This document shows positions 13,871 to 20,803 of a stretch of DNA of 64,000 bases, piece after piece (within the stretch, counting starts at the first letter, position 1; every line of letters begins with the position of its first letter). The notes beneath the pieces are model-generated. The model ran no database searches. It was given only the letters and a program-made list of their open reading frames with translations, and was not told the origin of the DNA. The translations under genes were made by a program, and so were the position numbers. Location of the stretch: sequence record MH791409.1, one strand, 5' to 3'. The stretch comes from Escherichia phage EcWhh-1.

Positions 13871-14992
13871 ATGGAAAGATTTATGGCAGAATTTGGACAA
13901 GGATATGTCCAGGTTCCTACATTATCTGAAAACAATGCTGTAAGGTATAAACTTAGTATAGCAGGTAGTTGTACTAAGTCTACCACAAAAGCATATGTTA
14001 AATTTCAAGATGGGGACTTTGGTCCCCAGAATTTTCAAAATGGACTAAACCTTATAGAAATTGATGTTAGTGCCGAACCTAAAGTGGTGGCTAACAAAAC
14101 TTATAGCTTTACAAAAGATTTTGATGTTATCTCTGAAGCTTTTATTACTTACATAAGTTCAATACCGGCCAATAGAATAGTTTGTTTAGTATCTTCCGGT
14201 AGATTAAATGCTTCGCAAAATCTTATTGATTGGTTCCGTGCAGCAGGAAGTACCGCATTTCCATCTAAATGGCTAATAGACCGCTTCGAGCCGTCTTATT
14301 CGGCCTTTTACGTGTCTGGTAGAAATACTATAGTGATGGAACATGTCCTTTATAATGACGGGGTGTTTGTTGAAGATGTTTCTACCCCGTTAGAAGTTGT
14401 TTTTGACGATATCAGTGATGTTGGCGGCACCGGGTATCCTATAAGAATAGTGGAAGATGAAAACACTTATCTAAGTAATGATGGAGAGGAAATAAAACGT
14501 TTCCCTACTGAATCTCCTACTACTCCTTGCGCCGATTATAATATGAAGCCTGGAGAATTCTTTTATCTTAAATTCCAAATGATGTGTGACCAGGAATTAA
14601 AAGATTTAGGGACCTCTCAGATGTCTGTTAGATTTTTTAATGCCTCAGGTGCTTTAACAGGGTCGGTTAATATGGAAGTTCCACCTAATGTCCCTGCTGG
14701 GTCTTGGATGACTTTTGAGCGGGTAATTGAAGTTCCTGCTAATACTGAAACATTTACATTGTATGCAAGAAAAACAGTGGCCGATGGAGTCGGTGGTGTA
14801 CGTAATGTGATGTTCGGGGAAGTATCAGAGCCAGAATCTCAACCTAAATTGGCCGAATTTGGTGTAAATGGTATTCGTATGAATTTCGGTACCGAAACAA
14901 AGAATATGGGTACTACCATAGCCCAGTTATACGATAAAACAGGTACTAAACCAGGACAGGTTTGGGTGTCTGAATTTAGAGAAAAATATTAA
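13871..14992 (+). CDS. 35: long tail fibre hinge connector gp35
   Basis: 373-aa ORF directly after gene 34 in the late operon. Confidence 0.85.
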   Translation: MERFMAEFGQGYVQVPTLSENNAVRYKLSIAGSCTKSTTKAYVKFQDGDFGPQNFQNGLNLIEIDVSAEPKVVANKTYSFTKDFDVISEAFITYISSIPANRIVCLVSSGRLNASQNLIDWFRAAGSTAFPSKWLIDRFEPSYSAFYVSGRNTIVMEHVLYNDGVFVEDVSTPLEVVFDDISDVGGTGYPIRIVEDENTYLSNDGEEIKRFPTESPTTPCADYNMKPGEFFYLKFQMMCDQELKDLGTSQMSVRFFNASGALTGSVNMEVPPNVPAGSWMTFERVIEVPANTETFTLYARKTVADGVGGVRNVMFGEVSEPESQPKLAEFGVNGIRMNFGTETKNMGTTIAQLYDKTGTKPGQVWVSEFREKY

Positions 14993-15020
14993 GGAACCTT
15001 CGGGTTCCTTTTTCGTTTTC
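14993..15020 (+). terminator. rho-independent terminator after gene 35
   Basis: GGAACC-TTCG-GGTTCC hairpin followed by TTTTTCGTTTTC. Confidence 0.75.
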
Positions 15021-15068: not shown

Positions 15069-15716
15069 ATGGCAGATTTAAAATTAGGTTCTACAGCAGG
15101 AGGTTCGGTATTATGGCACCAAGGTAATTTCCCCTTAACGCCTGTATCAAATGACCTTCTTTACAAAACATATAAAGTTTACACCGAGTATAATAAACCT
15201 CAAGCAGTTGATAACGATTTCGTTTCAAAAGCTAACGGCGGTAATTATAAGAACAACGTGTATTTTGAAAAAGGTTTGACCTTTAATGATACTAATGGAT
15301 ATGGTATTAAATTAGGAGCAAGAACCGGCGGGGCTCCGTTCACAGCTTCTTTCCGTATTAAAGGTGCTTTTGGATATGAAACGGAAGATGGTACTCCGTT
15401 TGTGATATTTGACCCAAGTAAAGTAGTGGGTGCTAAACGTCTTACCGTAATGGGTGATTCATTATTCCGCCAAGTATATGATGAATCGGGCCGCGTATTC
15501 AGCCCTGGCAACACCCCTACTAAGGCCCAAGTTGGATTGTCATTAGTAGATAACGCAAAACAGGTCCAAATAAATAATACTGACATGCAAATAATGGATG
15601 GAGTGCTAGCGGCTCCTAACTTTATTTCACGGAATCCGGCCTCTGGTGCAGGACACGTTCCTCGCTTTGACCAGATTGTTCAAAAAGATTCTATTCAAGA
15701 TTTTGGTTATTATTAA
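15069..15716 (+). CDS. 36: long tail fibre distal connector gp36
   Basis: 215-aa ORF between 35 and 37; gene order. Confidence 0.85.
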   Translation: MADLKLGSTAGGSVLWHQGNFPLTPVSNDLLYKTYKVYTEYNKPQAVDNDFVSKANGGNYKNNVYFEKGLTFNDTNGYGIKLGARTGGAPFTASFRIKGAFGYETEDGTPFVIFDPSKVVGAKRLTVMGDSLFRQVYDESGRVFSPGNTPTKAQVGLSLVDNAKQVQINNTDMQIMDGVLAAPNFISRNPASGAGHVPRFDQIVQKDSIQDFGYY

Positions 15717-15724
15717 GAGGCATT

Positions 15725-18700
15725 ATGGCTACTTTAAAACAGATACAATTTAAAAGAAGTAAAGTAGCTGGTGTACGTCCTACGCCAGCGCAGTTGGCTG
15801 AAGGCGAGCTGGCTATTAACTTAAAAGACCGTTTGTTATTTACCAAAGATGACACTGGAGCGATTATCGACCTTGGCTTTGCTAAAGGTGGTAATATCGA
15901 CGGAAACGTTATTCATAACGGTAACTACAACCAGACCGGCGATTATGCCCTGAAGGGTGCTTTTACCCAAACAGGTAGTTATACGACATCCGGAAGTATA
16001 ACAGCAAATGGCGATATCACAGCAAAATCTCGCCTAATGACAGATAACGGTGAAGTTCTTGTACGGGGTGCAGGAACTACCCACGTTCGATTCCAGGATT
16101 TGGCTGATGCGCGTGAAAGAGGCATAATTTATTCTCAAAACCGTGCTGGGGATACCAAGCAAATCTTAAATGTTCGTGTTCAGGATTACACTAATTCAAC
16201 ATCTAATATTTTTGCATTCAACGGTGACGGTTTATTTTATGCTCCATCTATTTCTGGTGGAACATCGGTAAAATCTCCAATAATTTATACTAATAAAGTT
16301 ATTACCGACGGTAAAGCCGCCGGCGATTACGATATATCTTCATTATCAAATAACACTCCATTGGCAGAAAGCGAAACGGCTATTAACCACCTCCGTGTTA
16401 TGCGAAATGCTGTAGGAGCAGGTATTTTCCACGAAGTTAATGTTAATGACGGAATAGCCTGGTATTCCGGAGATGGCTTAGACACTTATCTTTGGTCGTT
16501 TACCTGGTCCGGTGGATTGAAAGCCGGTCATTCTATTTCTGTAGGTCTTCCAGGTGGCCCTAAAGGATATTCTGAATTAGGGACGGCTTCAATTGCTCTT
16601 GGTGACAATAACACAGGTTTGAAATGGAAACAAGACGGCCAGTTCCATACAGTTAATAATGGAGCTTATACTTTACTTACAACTCCGACTGAAGTTACAA
16701 GCCTTAAACAGTTAGTTGCTGGTTATTCAACCAACGGTTCTGATTTAATTCTTCCTACAGCTCAAAACTATCCATTAGTTATTGTTAATACTACTAATGA
16801 TAAAAACGGCTTTGGTGATGGACAGACTCTTTTAGGTTATCATCAGAGTGGTAAATACCACCATTATTTCCGTGGTAAAGGTGTAACAAACGTTAACACT
16901 GATGGTGGGTTGTTGGTTACTCCTGGTAACGTTGAAGTCCGTGGTGGTTCGGTTAATATTGACGGTCGTGGTAACGCTTCCACTGTGATTTTTAAAGGAA
17001 GTACCACAGGATATAGTTCAGTTGATAATATAGAGCTCAAAGGTTGGGGTGACACTTTTAATACGGTAGGTGGTTCTCGTAAAAACGTATTGGAAACATC
17101 TGATGCTACCGGCTGGATGCACTATATTCAACGAACTACAGCAGGTAAAGTCGAATCTTATTTAAACGGCACGATGAACATCGTCGAAGGATTGTCTGTC
17201 AGTCAAGATACATCCTTAAAACGCAATCTGTATGTTTCCAATGAAATTAAAGTCCGCGCTGCTAGTGGTCTTCGTATTTGGAATGATAAGTATGGTGTTA
17301 TTTTTCGAAATTCAGAAGACCAGCTGCATATTATCCCAACCAATGCTAATGCTGGTGAAAGTGGCGGATTGGGTCCATTACGCCCATTAAGTATTATGTT
17401 AGACACTGGTCGGGTTAAAATCCCTAACTTAGAAGCTAAGCAGGTTTCAGGTGTATTGGAATTCATCACCACTCACGGCTCCTCTTATGCCAACCAGAAT
17501 ACGACTAAAGCCCCGTTGTATCAAACATTAGATTCTGCGTCTGCTCAAGCATTCTATCCTATTACTAAGCAGAAAAATACTGTTTCGAATGTAACTGTTA
17601 CTCAAGGTATGGACCGAACTACAAGTGAATACCGAATTGTTGCTCAAGGTGATTTGCTTGATGATGGTGATGATACAGGATTAAAATATTGGCGCTTTAC
17701 CAAAGAAGGTAACTTCATGGCTCAGAACCGCTTATATGCCGGTACAGCTTTCATGGATACCGAGGGTAATATTGTTGGTTCTATTTGGAACAAGTATAGC
17801 GGTGCTACTAACCTTGACGCAGCGGTGAATACTCGTGTTGGTAAAGGCGGGGACACAATGACAGGCCGCTTAACTCTTAAAACCAATTCAGACGCTATTG
17901 TTATTGATTATCCGGCAGATGAAGCGGGTTATGTTAAGGGTAAAAAAGGTGGTGTTGATAACTGGTATATAGGTAATGGTGGTGCTGATAACGGTTTAGC
18001 CTTCTGGAGCTTCCAATCCCAAGGTGGTATCAATATTAACCCGAATGGCGAGGTTATTTTATCTCCACAAGGTGCTTCAGTATTCAATGTAAACCGAGAC
18101 CGTATTTATATGAACGGTTCCAACTGGATTGCACATAAATCTGGTGCATGGGGTGACCAATGGGGTTTAGAAGCACCTTATTTCCTTGAGTTTGGTAGTG
18201 TGGGTGAAGACAGTTATTATCCTATTATTAAAGGTAAATCAGTAATTACTGGTCAAGGATATACTACTTCTGTTGAGCTTGGTATTAGACGTACACCTCA
18301 AGCATGGGGACAAGCGATAATTCGTGTAGGTAATGCCGAGCGCGGCGACGGTCCTGTAGGTATTTTCGAATTCCATTCTAGCGGACTATTCTACAGCCCT
18401 ACTATGGTTCAAACTCCTGCAATCGGTGTTGGTACTGTTAACGGATTAGGTGCTCCTAGTATTGCAATTGGTGATAATGATACAGGCTTATCACACGGTG
18501 GTGACGGCCGAATCAATATGGTTGCCAATGGGATTCATATTGCGTCATGGTCCAGCTCATACCATATCCATCAAGGTCTTTGGGATACCACTGGCGCTTT
18601 ATGGACTGAGCAAGGAAGAGCTATTATGTCTTATGGTCATCTTGTTCAGGCAAACGACAGCTATTCTACATATGTCCGTGACGTTTATGTCCGTTCTGAT

Positions 18701-19030
18701 ATTCGTGTTAAAAAGGACCTCGTTAAATTTGAAAATGCTTCTGATAAGCTTTCTAAAATTAACGGTTACACTTATATGCAGAAACGTGGAATGGACGAAG
18801 AAGGTAATCAGAAATGGGAACCTAACGCTGGTTTAATTGCTCAAGAAGTTCAAGCTATTTTACCAGAATTAGTTGAAGGTGACCCTGACGGTGAAGCTTT
18901 ACTTCGTTTGAACTACAACGGTGTAATTGGTTTAAATACAGCTGCAATCAACGAGCATACTGCAGAAATTGCAGAACTCAAATCAGAGATTGAAGAGCTT
19001 AAAAAATTGGTTAAATCATTGTTGAAATAA
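15725..19030 (+). CDS. 37: long tail fibre distal subunit gp37, with C-terminal intramolecular-chaperone-like domain
   Basis: 1101-aa ORF; the C-terminal ~110 aa (SDIRVKKD...[35 protein letters not shown]) resemble the self-cleaving chaperone domain of endosialidase and tail-fibre proteins. Confidence 0.93.
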
Positions 19031-19034
19031 TAAG

Positions 19035-19050
19035 AGGGGCTTAGGCCCCT
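19035..19050 (+). other. intercistronic hairpin between genes 37 and 38
   Basis: AGGGGC-TTAG-GCCCCT perfect 6-bp stem directly before the gene 38 RBS (GGAGG); no T-run, so not called a terminator. Confidence 0.5.
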
Positions 19051-19061
19051 TGGAGGTTTAT

Positions 19062-19835
19062 ATGGCAGTTGAAGGACCGTGGGTAGGATGGTCTGCAAGG
19101 GTACAAACTGGAGACCCTTGGATGGCAGGAGCAGCCGTAAGATTAAGAATGGGTGTTCCGTTTTGGATGAGTAATATGATAGGTCGATCTGTTGAAGTAA
19201 TTCACACACTTGGGGCAGATCATAACTTTAACGGACAATGGTTTAGAGACCGTTGTTTTGAAGCCGGTGGTGCTCCTATCGTGTTTAACATAACTGGGGA
19301 CTTAGTATCTTATACTAAAGACGTTCCATTATTCTTTATGTATGGAGATACCCCTAACGAATATGTTACTTTGAATATTCATGGTGGTGTTCATATGTGG
19401 GGCCGAGGTGGCAACGGTACAGTAAATGGAAACCCAGGCACTAATGGTGGTGACGTAATCCAAAATGATATTGGTGGACGACTTCGCATTTGGAATTATG
19501 GTGTGATAGCCTCCGGTGGTGGCGGCGGCGGTGGCGTATCATTACAGAATAGTTGGCCTGCAAATTCTACAGCAGGTGGTGGAGGCGGCAGACCATTTGG
19601 TCTCGGCGGCGGTGGTGTTAATTGGCCAGGCGGCAATGCTAGTTATGTTGGTCCAGGTGGCGGTGGTAATGCAAGCCAATTTGGCGGTGGCAATGGTGGT
19701 GATGCTGGAGGTTGGGGCGGAGATGGATGGGGTAAAAACTTATCCAGGTCAGGTGGTGGTGCTCCTGGTAGAGCAGTATTCGGTTCCTCCCCATCATGGG
19801 GCGCTACAGGCACTATCTACGGCTCTTGGTTATAA
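19062..19835 (+). CDS. 38: long tail fibre tip adhesin gp38 (T2-type, glycine-rich motifs)
   Basis: Begins [10 protein letters not shown]; poly-Gly runs ([24 protein letters not shown]) separated by variable segments. The ORF track starts at a TTG at 19050; the ATG at 19062 with GGAGG 5 nt upstream is the likelier start. Confidence 0.88.
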
Positions 19836-19851
19836 TACGAAAGTATTAAAT

Positions 19852-19859
19852 TATAAATA
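19852..19859 (+). promoter_or_regulatory. T4-type late promoter (TATAAATA) for holin t
   Basis: Exact TATAAATA 18 nt upstream of the t ATG. Confidence 0.8.
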
Positions 19860-19877: not shown

Positions 19878-20531
19878 ATGGAACCAAAAGTAGGATTTTC
19901 ATTATCAGACCTACTTTTTGGACTTCTTGATAGAATTTTTAAAGATACTTCTTCCGGGAAAGTAGTTTTTTCCCGGGTCCTAGTCGTAATATTATTGTTC
20001 TTTATGGCATTAGTTTGGTATAAAGGCGAGTATATTCTAAACTTTTATAAAGAGACAACTTATGCCTCTTATACTGAAATGATTAGACAAGACCAGGACA
20101 ATAGATTTAAAATTGCGGCTATCGAGCAGCTCCGAATAGTGCATTCTTCTTCAGGCGCAGACTTCACAGCAATATATTCTTTTAGACCAACCAACATGAA
20201 TTATTTTGTGGACATGGTTGCTTATGAGGGTAAATTACCGGAAACGGTAGACGCAAAAAATACGGGAGGGTTTCCAATTGACAAAACGTCAGTAGAATAT
20301 ATGGCGGGAGTTAACGGGAACTATTTTGAATCAAGTACCGAAACTGTATTCCTTCCTACAAAGAAGAAAACACAATTCACGTATATGTTTTCATGCCCGT
20401 TTTTTAATTTGGATAACATCTATGCCGGCTCGATATCATTATATTGGTATGATATCAAACCGGATTTAGGATTTCCTAGACTTTCGTCTATGTGTGGTCA
20501 GGCTGGGAGAACATTAGGTCGAACTCGTTAA
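19878..20531 (+). CDS. t: holin T
   Basis: 217-aa ORF with one N-terminal TM segment and a large periplasmic domain; conserved YSFRP.NMNYFVDM.AYEGKLP and FLPTKK...YMFSCPFFNLDNIYAG blocks match recalled T4 holin. Confidence 0.94.
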   Translation: MEPKVGFSLSDLLFGLLDRIFKDTSSGKVVFSRVLVVILLFFMALVWYKGEYILNFYKETTYASYTEMIRQDQDNRFKIAAIEQLRIVHSSSGADFTAIYSFRPTNMNYFVDMVAYEGKLPETVDAKNTGGFPIDKTSVEYMAGVNGNYFESSTETVFLPTKKKTQFTYMFSCPFFNLDNIYAGSISLYWYDIKPDLGFPRLSSMCGQAGRTLGRTR

Positions 20532-20803
20532 AAATTGGAGGTATACATCATTAGATAACGATGTATATCTTCATACCCTTCATTAAATTGCTCAATAAGA
20601 GTATCACGTTCATCTTCAGTTAAAGACTTAAAGAGTTTATTAAAAGATAGGCCGTTAAGTTCCTTTCCATGTTCATTACGAATACCCAACTCATTCAAAA
20701 AGGCAATAAACTCATCACGGCGCTGCATGATGTCTTCACAATCCGTTTTAATCAAAATGGAAACAATAGTAGCAATTTCGGAAACGATTTCAATTTTAGT
20801 CAT
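20528..20803 (-). CDS. asiA: anti-sigma70 factor AsiA
   Basis: 91-aa ORF; IAFLNELGI...LIEQFNEGYEDIHRYLMMYT matches recalled T4 AsiA; convergent with t as in T4. Confidence 0.88.
   Translation of the reverse strand: MTKIEIVSEIATIVSILIKTDCEDIMQRRDEFIAFLNELGIRNEHGKELNGLSFNKLFKSLTEDERDTLIEQFNEGYEDIHRYLMMYTSNF

Follow-up and report, generated by a model that had tools for sequence, protein, structure and literature searches.

A probable T2/S16-type tail-fiber tip module in Escherichia phage EcWhh-1, with a predicted self-cleaving gp37, a gp38 adhesin, and a conserved intergenic hairpin

How does the long tail fiber's tip mature in Escherichia phage EcWhh-1, and which protein at its end meets the host? 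The question is raised by genes 37 and 38 of this phage, which together occupy positions 15,725 to 19,835 of the window, i.e., of the whole 64,000-nucleotide stretch of sequence record MH791409.1 analyzed here. The original prediction for this locus, made from the letters alone, held that the fiber tip is matured by self-cleavage of gp37 and then capped by a separate, hypervariable receptor-binding protein, gp38, with a hairpin separating the two genes. Our analysis indicates that the region is very probably the distal-tip module of a T2/S16-type long tail fiber, comprising a self-cleaving gp37, a gp38 that acts as both cap and adhesin, co-transcription of the two genes, and a conserved hairpin between them.

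A module of this kind is already known. The self-cleaving chaperone, the gp38 cap, and the design in which Gly motifs alternate with variable loops are established for T2, S16, and PP01; as cited in PMC3157838, the mechanism has been known for T2 since Drexler et al. 1986, and, as cited in PMC7917993, it was structurally resolved for S16 in 2018. The sequence and fold tests described below place the EcWhh-1 locus in this class, and they support the predicted self-cleaved and capped tip as a case of the published T2/S16-type model. The adhesin sequence itself is not new, as it is already public in GenBank as a protein of phage vB_EcoM_IME281 (IME281; MH051913). Only two points are mildly new, namely, the relation between the T2-type and T4-type hairpins at the 37/38 junction and a distinctive loop allele in a probable OmpF adhesin. 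Correct annotation of the module is useful, since in most T-even phages host range is determined chiefly by gp38, which is also the part swapped in re-targeting.

The C-terminal chaperone domain of gp37

Gene 37 (15725–19030, + strand) encodes the precursor of the distal subunit of the long tail fiber, which has 1101 residues and a calculated mass of 118.5 kDa. The protein matches phrog_1699 end to end, and it matches the Pfam families Gp34_trimer, gp37_trimer, and Peptidase_S74. Its last ~110 residues had been likened, in the original prediction, to the intramolecular chaperones of endosialidases and tail fibers. A search with hidden Markov models bears this out: Peptidase_S74 (PF13884, “chaperone of endosialidase”) matches residues 991–1050 with an E-value of 8.9e-13 and 48.8 bits, well above the curated cut-off of 22, and the match spans profile positions 1–57 of 58. 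Judged from this profile, alignments, and the predicted fold, the domain comprises the last 111 of the 1101 residues (S991–K1101, 12.4 kDa; 18695–19027, + strand) and closes with a long C-terminal helix. It thus sits at the extreme C-terminus, and the predicted start at 18700 lay three bases past the Ser codon. The part of gp37 upstream of the domain matches long tail fiber profiles and the β-helix of S16 gp37.

The domain opens with the motif SDIRVK, in which the putative catalytic Ser991 (codon 18695–18697, + strand) is followed five residues on by Lys996 (codon 18710–18712, + strand). When the 130 C-terminal residues of gp37 are aligned among 11 phages belonging to seven genera, the S, D, and K of SDxRxK are invariant, at an overall column identity of 50%; the same three residues are likewise invariant in a second alignment of 12 proteins, which includes metagenomic ones. 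The last 201 residues of gp37 align with the S16 gp37 fragment of PDB entry 6F45 (E 3.9e-47), and EcWhh-1 reads DVYVR^SDIRVKK where S16 has DLNVS^SDRRIKK. According to PMC7917993, which cites Dunne et al. 2018, the last 113 residues of S16 gp37 are an intramolecular chaperone that is autocleaved at DLNVS^SDRRIKK, and this cleavage bares the docking surface for gp38. Processing of gp37 is also described for T2 and T6 in PMC3157838, where the T2 case is taken from Drexler et al. 1986.

A profile built from the 11 phage C-termini finds further proteins of known structure: the MyRF ICA domain 7DC3 (E 7e-11), the tail fiber 8JOV (E 4e-10), and, from the neck appendage of GA-1, the chaperone 3GUD (E 8e-5). 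In 3GUD, the crystallized chain begins at the Ser that aligns with S991, in the motif SDERHK. We infer that gp37 is autocleaved between R990 and S991 (18692–18697, + strand), a site that aligns with the published S16 site and with the equivalent Ser at which 3GUD starts. Cleavage at this position would divide the precursor into residues 1–990, with a calculated mass of 106.1 kDa, and the released 12.4 kDa fragment. The end of the mature protein would then be a β-helical tip (18425–18694, + strand), which aligns with the crystallized S16 fragment (6F45_A, E 3.9e-47) and is the predicted docking end for gp38, a role taken from the S16 structure (PMC6851490).

A match to the chaperone fold, on which the prediction depended, was also found. 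The last 130 residues of gp37 were modeled with AlphaFold2 (AF2) as a monomer, from a shallow alignment of 12 sequences, giving a mean predicted local distance difference test score (pLDDT) of 78 and a predicted template modeling score (pTM) of 0.60. Blocks over model residues 31–130 have pLDDT values of 85–94, apart from a lower block at 81–90, and the 17 residues preceding the domain are disordered; despite the shallow alignment, the model is adequate across the domain. Foldseek matched the model to 7DC3 (E 4e-6, probability 1.0, template modeling score 0.65) and to the endoNF chaperone 3GW6 (probability 0.93–0.99), and nothing else in the PDB was significant. Profile, catalytic residues, homology, and predicted fold are thus four agreeing lines by which the gp37 C-terminus is assigned to the Peptidase_S74 family of intramolecular chaperones.

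A word-index homology search with the 130-residue C-terminus returned only 13 short proteins. Three database entries of 170 residues, labeled “tail fiber domain-containing protein [Escherichia coli]” and located on contigs of ~166–167 kb, share 93–97% identity with the C-terminus of gp37; they resemble truncated gene calls from genomes of T-even phages that are filed under the host name.

gp38 and its start codon

The open reading frame (ORF) track starts gp38 at the TTG at 19050, the first start-like codon after a stop, which coincides with the last base of the 3′ arm of the intergenic hairpin. The original prediction preferred the ATG 12 nucleotides downstream, at 19062, which has the Shine-Dalgarno (SD) sequence GGAGG (19052–19056, + strand) at a spacing of 5 nucleotides. 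The alignments agree with this choice. Positions 1–40 of the Pfam Gp38_N profile align with residues 1–40 numbered from the ATG, and the resulting N-terminus, MAVEGPWVG, resembles MAVQGPWVG in S16 gp38 (PDB 6F45). Residues M1 and A2 are invariant among 11 homologues, and the GenBank records of JS10 and IME281 annotate the same ATG, with a coding sequence of 774 nucleotides. Based on these alignments, the start of gene 38 is assigned to the ATG at 19062 and not to the TTG. In the PST record, gp38 starts seven codons too early, at MPPLEKIMAVVG.

Read from this ATG, gene 38 (19062–19835, + strand) encodes a T2-type tail-fiber tip adhesin of 257 residues and 26.1 kDa. The two Pfam families of such proteins cover it nearly end to end, with PF21721 (Gp38_N) at residues 1–40 (E 3e-19, 69.2 bits) and PF05268 (GP38) at residues 45–257 (E 7e-81, 271.6 bits), each against a cut-off of 25; phrog_2056, “tail fiber protein; host specificity”, also spans residues 1–257. 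Its relatives in the PDB are the receptor-binding domain of PP01 gp38 (9V85, E 5.7e-76) and S16 gp38 (6F45_D, E 5e-49), the latter matching end to end. The protein is 100% identical to IME281 AWD91035.1. By these matches, gp38 is classed as a full-length T2-type adhesin.

The N-terminal attachment domain (residues 1–44; 19062–19193, + strand) carries W7, W20, and W35. Of the 11 aligned homologues, at least 90% retain W7 and W20, and most retain W35. In S16, the N-terminal helical bundle of gp38 docks on the gp37 trimer via three conserved tryptophans, and it is followed by a central β-helix and a “polyglycine sandwich”, in which ten Gly-rich motifs are joined by hypervariable loops that have been proposed to form the receptor site (PMC6851490). 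The receptor-binding domain of EcWhh-1 gp38, drawn from the conservation profile (residues 113–257; 19398–19832, + strand), likewise shows Gly-rich motifs alternating with variable loops. There are six runs of at least three Gly, at residues 152–158, 172–176, 182–185, 199–202, 208–210, and 231–233, and Gly makes up 36% of residues 110–257. In the alignment of 11 phages, the Gly motifs are invariant, and the least conserved stretches (~120–128, 159–171, 186–197, 203–207, and 223–230) lie between them. The polyglycine runs and variable segments that had been read from the sequence as T2-like are therefore what comparison with relatives reveals as well.

The two ends of gp38 differ in their relationships. 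The attachment module (residues 1–44) is 100% identical to that of JS10, 79.5% to that of PP01, and 52% to that of Bas47 (Mosigvirus); the corresponding values for the receptor domain (residues 113–257) are 94.5%, 53.8%, and 91.7%. Modular exchange in such adhesins has been described by Trojet et al. 2011 (PMC3157838) and in later work. By these identities, gp38 is modular in the same way as gene 37, which, as discussed below, appears to be recombinant.

A conserved hairpin at the 37/38 junction

The perfect hairpin AGGGGC-TTAG-GCCCCT that had been noted between the two genes is present at 19035–19050. A closing G.U pair extends the stem to 19034–19051, making an RNA hairpin of 7 bp, including the terminal G.U pair, with the loop UUAG (+ strand). 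It begins directly after the tandem stop codons TAA TAA that end gene 37 (19028–19033, + strand), and the SD of gene 38 follows directly 3′ of it. The folding energy of the intergenic RNA is −13.2 kcal/mol, a stability reached by only 2 of 1000 sequences obtained by shuffling its bases.

To place this hairpin among relatives, junctions from JS10, IME281, PP01, Bas47, Lutter, MX01, STML-198 (S16-like), TadeuszReichstein, CC31, PST, a Klebsiella Marfavirus phage, and IMG/VR contigs were examined. Column-wise counting of pairs in a MAFFT alignment was dropped, as loops of 3, 4, and 6 nucleotides put the stems out of register. In its place, each sequence was folded, and the folds were compared from the loop-closing pair outward; this procedure leans toward finding stems, and hence each fold was checked against shuffles. 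In these relatives, the 27–36 nucleotides that separate the stop codon of gene 37 from the ATG of gene 38 always include a GC-rich stem of 6–8 bp. The 15 distinct T2-type junction variants fold at −11 to −15 kcal/mol, with between 1 and 24 of 1000 shuffles as stable in each case. Numbered from the loop outward, stem pairs 2 (G-C/C-G), 4 and 5 (G-C/A-U), and 6 (A-U/G-C/U-A) show compensatory changes on both sides. The loop is usually UUCG and is UUAG in EcWhh-1, JS10, and IME281. In most variants, the stem ends 0–1 nucleotides before the SD and 10–15 nucleotides before the AUG. In EcWhh-1 and in all 15 T2-type variants, GGAGG is on the 3′ side of the stem and normally spaced (5 nucleotides from the ATG in EcWhh-1). 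The hairpin was not found in relatives farther removed, whose genes 37 and 38 overlap (TAATG).

A related hairpin is known from T4, where the junction reads TAA GGAG AGGGGC TTCG GCCCTT CTAAAT ATG. The initiation region of T4 gene 38 is “split”: the structure cuts the distance between SD and AUG from 22 to 5 nucleotides and improves initiation (PMC3014915). Like its T4 counterpart, the EcWhh-1 hairpin stands in the same place after the gene 37 stop, and the stems are closely similar, GAGGGGC-TTCG-GCCCTTC in T4 versus GAGGGGC-TTAG-GCCCCTT in EcWhh-1. The two differ in the placement of the SD, which is 5′ of the stem in T4 and 3′ of it in EcWhh-1, and in the downstream genes, whose products are unrelated. 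Two T4-type loci resemble T4 in having GGAG 5′ of the stem, one of them with compensatory changes; statements about T4-type junctions rest on T4 and these two loci, which came from a scan of IMG/VR for T4-type gp38. In EcWhh-1, no hairpin between SD and start codon shortens the spacing, and since the SD is 3′ of the stem at normal spacing, the stem cannot do the spacing job that it does in T4. Judged by position and stem sequence, the EcWhh-1 hairpin corresponds, on the T2-type side, to the one in the initiation region of T4 gene 38.

The hairpin had originally been presented simply as something that separates gp37 from gp38. Its presence stands; its reading as a mere spacer does not, given that it abuts the gp38 SD and has a relative in T4. 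Conservation and compensatory changes support a selected RNA structure, more than a spacer. It would most likely shape the RNA of the 37/38 junction, and we infer that it either keeps the SD exposed and free of competing pairings or acts as a 3′ barrier that stabilizes the gene 37 mRNA. We also offer, as a tentative idea that we think less probable than its negation, that the hairpin is an ancestral element tied to the 3′ end of gene 37 and kept across T-even genera whichever gene 38 cassette follows, adhesin or chaperone, with the T4 split ribosome-binding site being a secondary re-use after the SD moved 5′. If this were true, the T2-type hairpin might adjust how much gp38 is made for a given amount of gp37 (each gp37 trimer taking one gp38 monomer) or protect the mRNA of gene 37.

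Proposed maturation of the tip and alternative readings

In the proposed mechanism, gp37 would be made as a 1101-residue precursor whose C-terminal S74 domain trimerizes and templates the folding of the preceding triple β-helix, as suggested by S16, T2, and the endosialidases. The S74 domain would then cut itself off between R990 and S991 by means of the Ser991/Lys996 dyad, leaving a mature subunit of 990 residues (106 kDa) that ends in ...DVYVR, with a freshly exposed hydrophobic end. One gp38 monomer would cap this end, with its N-terminal helical bundle docking via W7, W20, and W35, as the S16 crystal structure suggests. The C-terminal domain of gp38 would form a polyglycine-II sandwich of the conserved Gly-rich motifs, from which the variable loops would contact an outer-membrane porin.

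Several points weigh against this account. The AF2 model of the gp37 C-terminus is a monomer from only 12 sequences, with the pLDDT and pTM values given above, and its match to 3GW6 has a poor root mean square deviation of 17–19 Å. Compared with S16, 12 residues are inserted in the gp37 tip, shortly upstream of the cleavage motif. For EcWhh-1, cleavage of gp37, the location of gp38 in the virion, and the receptor are all predicted by homology, and the role of the hairpin is putative.

Among the alternatives, the hairpin could be an intrinsic terminator after gene 37, with read-through or separate expression of gene 38. The GC-rich stem and its place next to a stop codon would fit, and a scan with a consensus terminator model does call a terminator-like site here, although on the minus strand alone, on which the stem has a T-rich tail. 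On the coding strand, there is no U-run after the stem, where GGAGGTTTAT / GGAGGUUUAU follows, and none is conserved in the relatives; a canonical Rho-independent terminator was ruled out on this ground. Nor did a pattern search find the T4-type late-promoter box TATAAATA between genes 37 and 38. The nearest box on the + strand, at 19852–19859, lies upstream of gene t and marks the 3′ boundary of the 37–38 unit; the total count of TATAAATA in the window equals chance expectation, and only the position of a box is informative. A separate late promoter for gene 38 was ruled out, as the box occurs only there. With no late-promoter box between them, genes 37 and 38 are most likely co-transcribed. 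The position of the stem, 0–1 nucleotides before the SD in most variants, and the fact that the homologous T4 hairpin is part of the translation initiation region of gene 38 (PMC3014915) also argue against a terminator, which we regard as unlikely. Partial termination or a role in stabilizing the 3′ end is possible.

A different stem follows gp35. It is a perfect 8-bp stem with a TTCG loop (14991–15010), located right after the gp35 stop and followed by TTTCGTTTTC, and it is terminator-like on both strands. Having a coding-strand T-run, which the 37/38 hairpin lacks, it resembles a genuine terminator.

For gp37, the preferred reading of a self-cleaving chaperone has to be set against a degenerate S74 relic that only helps trimerization and stays on the mature fiber uncleaved. 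The status of cleavage in EcWhh-1 as a prediction and the high deviation of the 3GW6 match leave room for such a relic, but we consider it very unlikely, given that the SDxRxK motif, Ser-Lys dyad included, does not vary from genus to genus, that the domain is a close homologue of the S16 domain reported to autocleave at the aligned position, and that a retained domain of 111 residues would occupy the end where gp38 docks in the S16 structure.

Similarly, gp38 could be a T4-type assembly catalyst that is released after fiber folding, rather than an adhesin. The GenBank records of JS10 and IME281 imply as much by their product name; there, the adhesin-type gp38 is called “distal long tail fiber assembly catalyst”, i.e., it is given the T4-type function. 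Yet a direct comparison with T4 gp38 detected no similarity (the best BLASTP match has E 1.1 and spans 14 residues), by which a T4-type identity was ruled out, whereas PF05268 and PF21721 match in full length and the solved S16 and PP01 adhesins are matched. Moreover, EcWhh-1 gp37 has its own chaperone domain, unlike T4 gp37. A domain search of the C-terminal 207 residues of T4 gp37 yielded Collar and Phage_fibre repeats and no S74 domain, in keeping with the fact that T4 is known to depend on a chaperone encoded apart from gp37. An assembly catalyst is thus highly improbable, and since gp38 lacks similarity to T4 gp38, the “assembly catalyst” name is a carry-over from T4 gene numbering, a misleading label that the public records of the closest relatives still bear.

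That the hairpin is a chance palindrome without function, as its short stem (6 perfect pairs) and the unremarkable fold of its 71-nucleotide context (z-score −1.28) might suggest, is extremely improbable in view of the shuffle result, the recurrence of the stem at the same place in 15 junction variants of several genera with double compensatory changes, and its presence in T4-type junctions too.

The predicted receptor of gp38

The receptor domain of EcWhh-1 gp38 belongs to a cluster of 86 phage records, which includes Bas47, RB51, and FL31, and is 91.7% identical to the Bas47 adhesin and 89% identical to that of RB51. E. coli B strains produce OmpF and not OmpC. IME281, whose adhesin is identical, was propagated on E. 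coli BL21(DE3), according to its GenBank record. Dependence of Bas47 (AlbertHofmann) on ompF has been reported from knockout and complementation (PMC8594841), and genome-wide screens have assigned RB51 to OmpF (preprint 10.64898/2026.04.02.716166). Given the ~90% identity of the receptor domain to the adhesins of these two OmpF-dependent phages, OmpF is most probably the receptor of gp38.

One observation weakens the OmpF prediction. The gp38 loop at residues 195–207 (window 19644–19682) carries a distinctive allele, where Bas47, RB51, and RB68 read YDAPGGAGYTSQF and JS10 reads YDGPGGAGYTSQF; among 50,697 phage records, EcWhh-1 has this allele in common only with IME281, and the five substitutions at residues 195–206 are shared only with that phage. 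The distinctive loop adjoins Q206, which is kept in EcWhh-1, and Q206L alone has been reported to switch RB51 from OmpF to OmpW (preprint 10.64898/2026.04.02.716166). The same preprint attributes the OmpW specificity of RB68 to Q206L. The GenBank translations of RB51 and RB68 gp38 are identical, both with Q206, so that residue 206 could be located but the contrast between RB51 and RB68 was not obtained; the deposited RB68 sequence may differ from the stock studied in the preprint.

Locus organization and relatives

ORFs and profile searches of the window show a distal tail-fiber block in the standard T-even order, gp35-gp36-gp37-gp38-holin t-asiA. Upstream of gene 37 lie gp35 (13871–14992) and gp36 (15069–15716). 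Downstream of gene 38 lie the holin gene t (19878–20531; Phage_holin_T, E 1.3e-66) and, on the opposite strand, asiA (20528–20803). The order 37-38-t is also found in JS10, IME281, PP01, Bas47, STML-198, and CC31. Residues 57–130 of gp35 give a weak Pfam match to ILEI (interleukin-like EMT inducer, PF15711; 28.8 bits vs a cut-off of 27), which probably reflects a shared small β-rich domain.

The first 25 kb of the window are 95.7% identical, over 98% of their length, to JS10 (genus Dhakavirus, Tevenvirinae; EU863409), and the next-best matches are JS98, QL01, WG01, and other Dhakavirus phages. On this basis, EcWhh-1 is placed as a Dhakavirus-like T-even coliphage related to JS10 and IME281. 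From ~18560 to at least 21000, a stretch that includes gp38, t, and asiA, the nucleotide identity of the window to IME281 is 100%. In contrast, the gp37 shaft at 17900–18500 is only 63–72% identical to IME281 and 83–99% identical to JS10. This switch in identity suggests that gene 37 is a recombinant of the JS10 and IME281 types, with an apparent joint near 18500–18560 (+ strand).

Comparison with known fiber-tip systems

The system most similar in design is that of S16 (PDB 6F45; Dunne et al. 2018). EcWhh-1 and S16 share the gene order 37-38-t, a homologous gp37 C-terminus, and the S-D-x-R-x-K motif at the reported cleavage site. Their gp38 proteins are homologous end to end and have in common the N-terminal tryptophans, a long central poly-Gly run, and the Gly-rich motifs with variable loops. 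They differ in that gp38 is only ~50% identical and that the residue before the scissile Ser is Arg in EcWhh-1 and Ser in S16. The EcWhh-1 gp37 tip also has the 12-residue insertion, and while S16 binds Salmonella OmpC, the EcWhh-1 adhesin groups with OmpF binders.

IME281 and JS10, both of the genus Dhakavirus, are close relatives. IME281 has the identical gp38 protein, whereas its gp37 shaft differs, EcWhh-1 following JS10 at 17900–18500. JS10 has the same intergenic hairpin with the loop TTAG, whereas the variable loops of its gp38 differ. The gp38 adhesins of T2, T6, K3, and Ox2, as well as those of Bas47 and RB51, show the same modular architecture, and for the latter two, the receptor domain is 89–92% identical. 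Unlike the receptor domain, the attachment module is only 52% identical to that of Bas47, because this module matches its own gp37 type.

The chaperones of endoNF (3GW6), GA-1 (3GUD), and MyRF (ICA, 7DC3) resemble the gp37 domain in Pfam family, in the spacing of the Ser-Lys dyad, in their C-terminal position after a trimeric β-helix, and in the predicted fold. The carrier in EcWhh-1 is, however, a T-even distal tail fiber rather than a tailspike, and release of the domain would create the docking site for gp38. Judged from sequence and fold model, the features that define a T4-type gp38, the T4 split ribosome-binding site, and a Rho-independent terminator are absent from the locus, and all testable defining features of the S74 chaperone and gp38 adhesin families are present.

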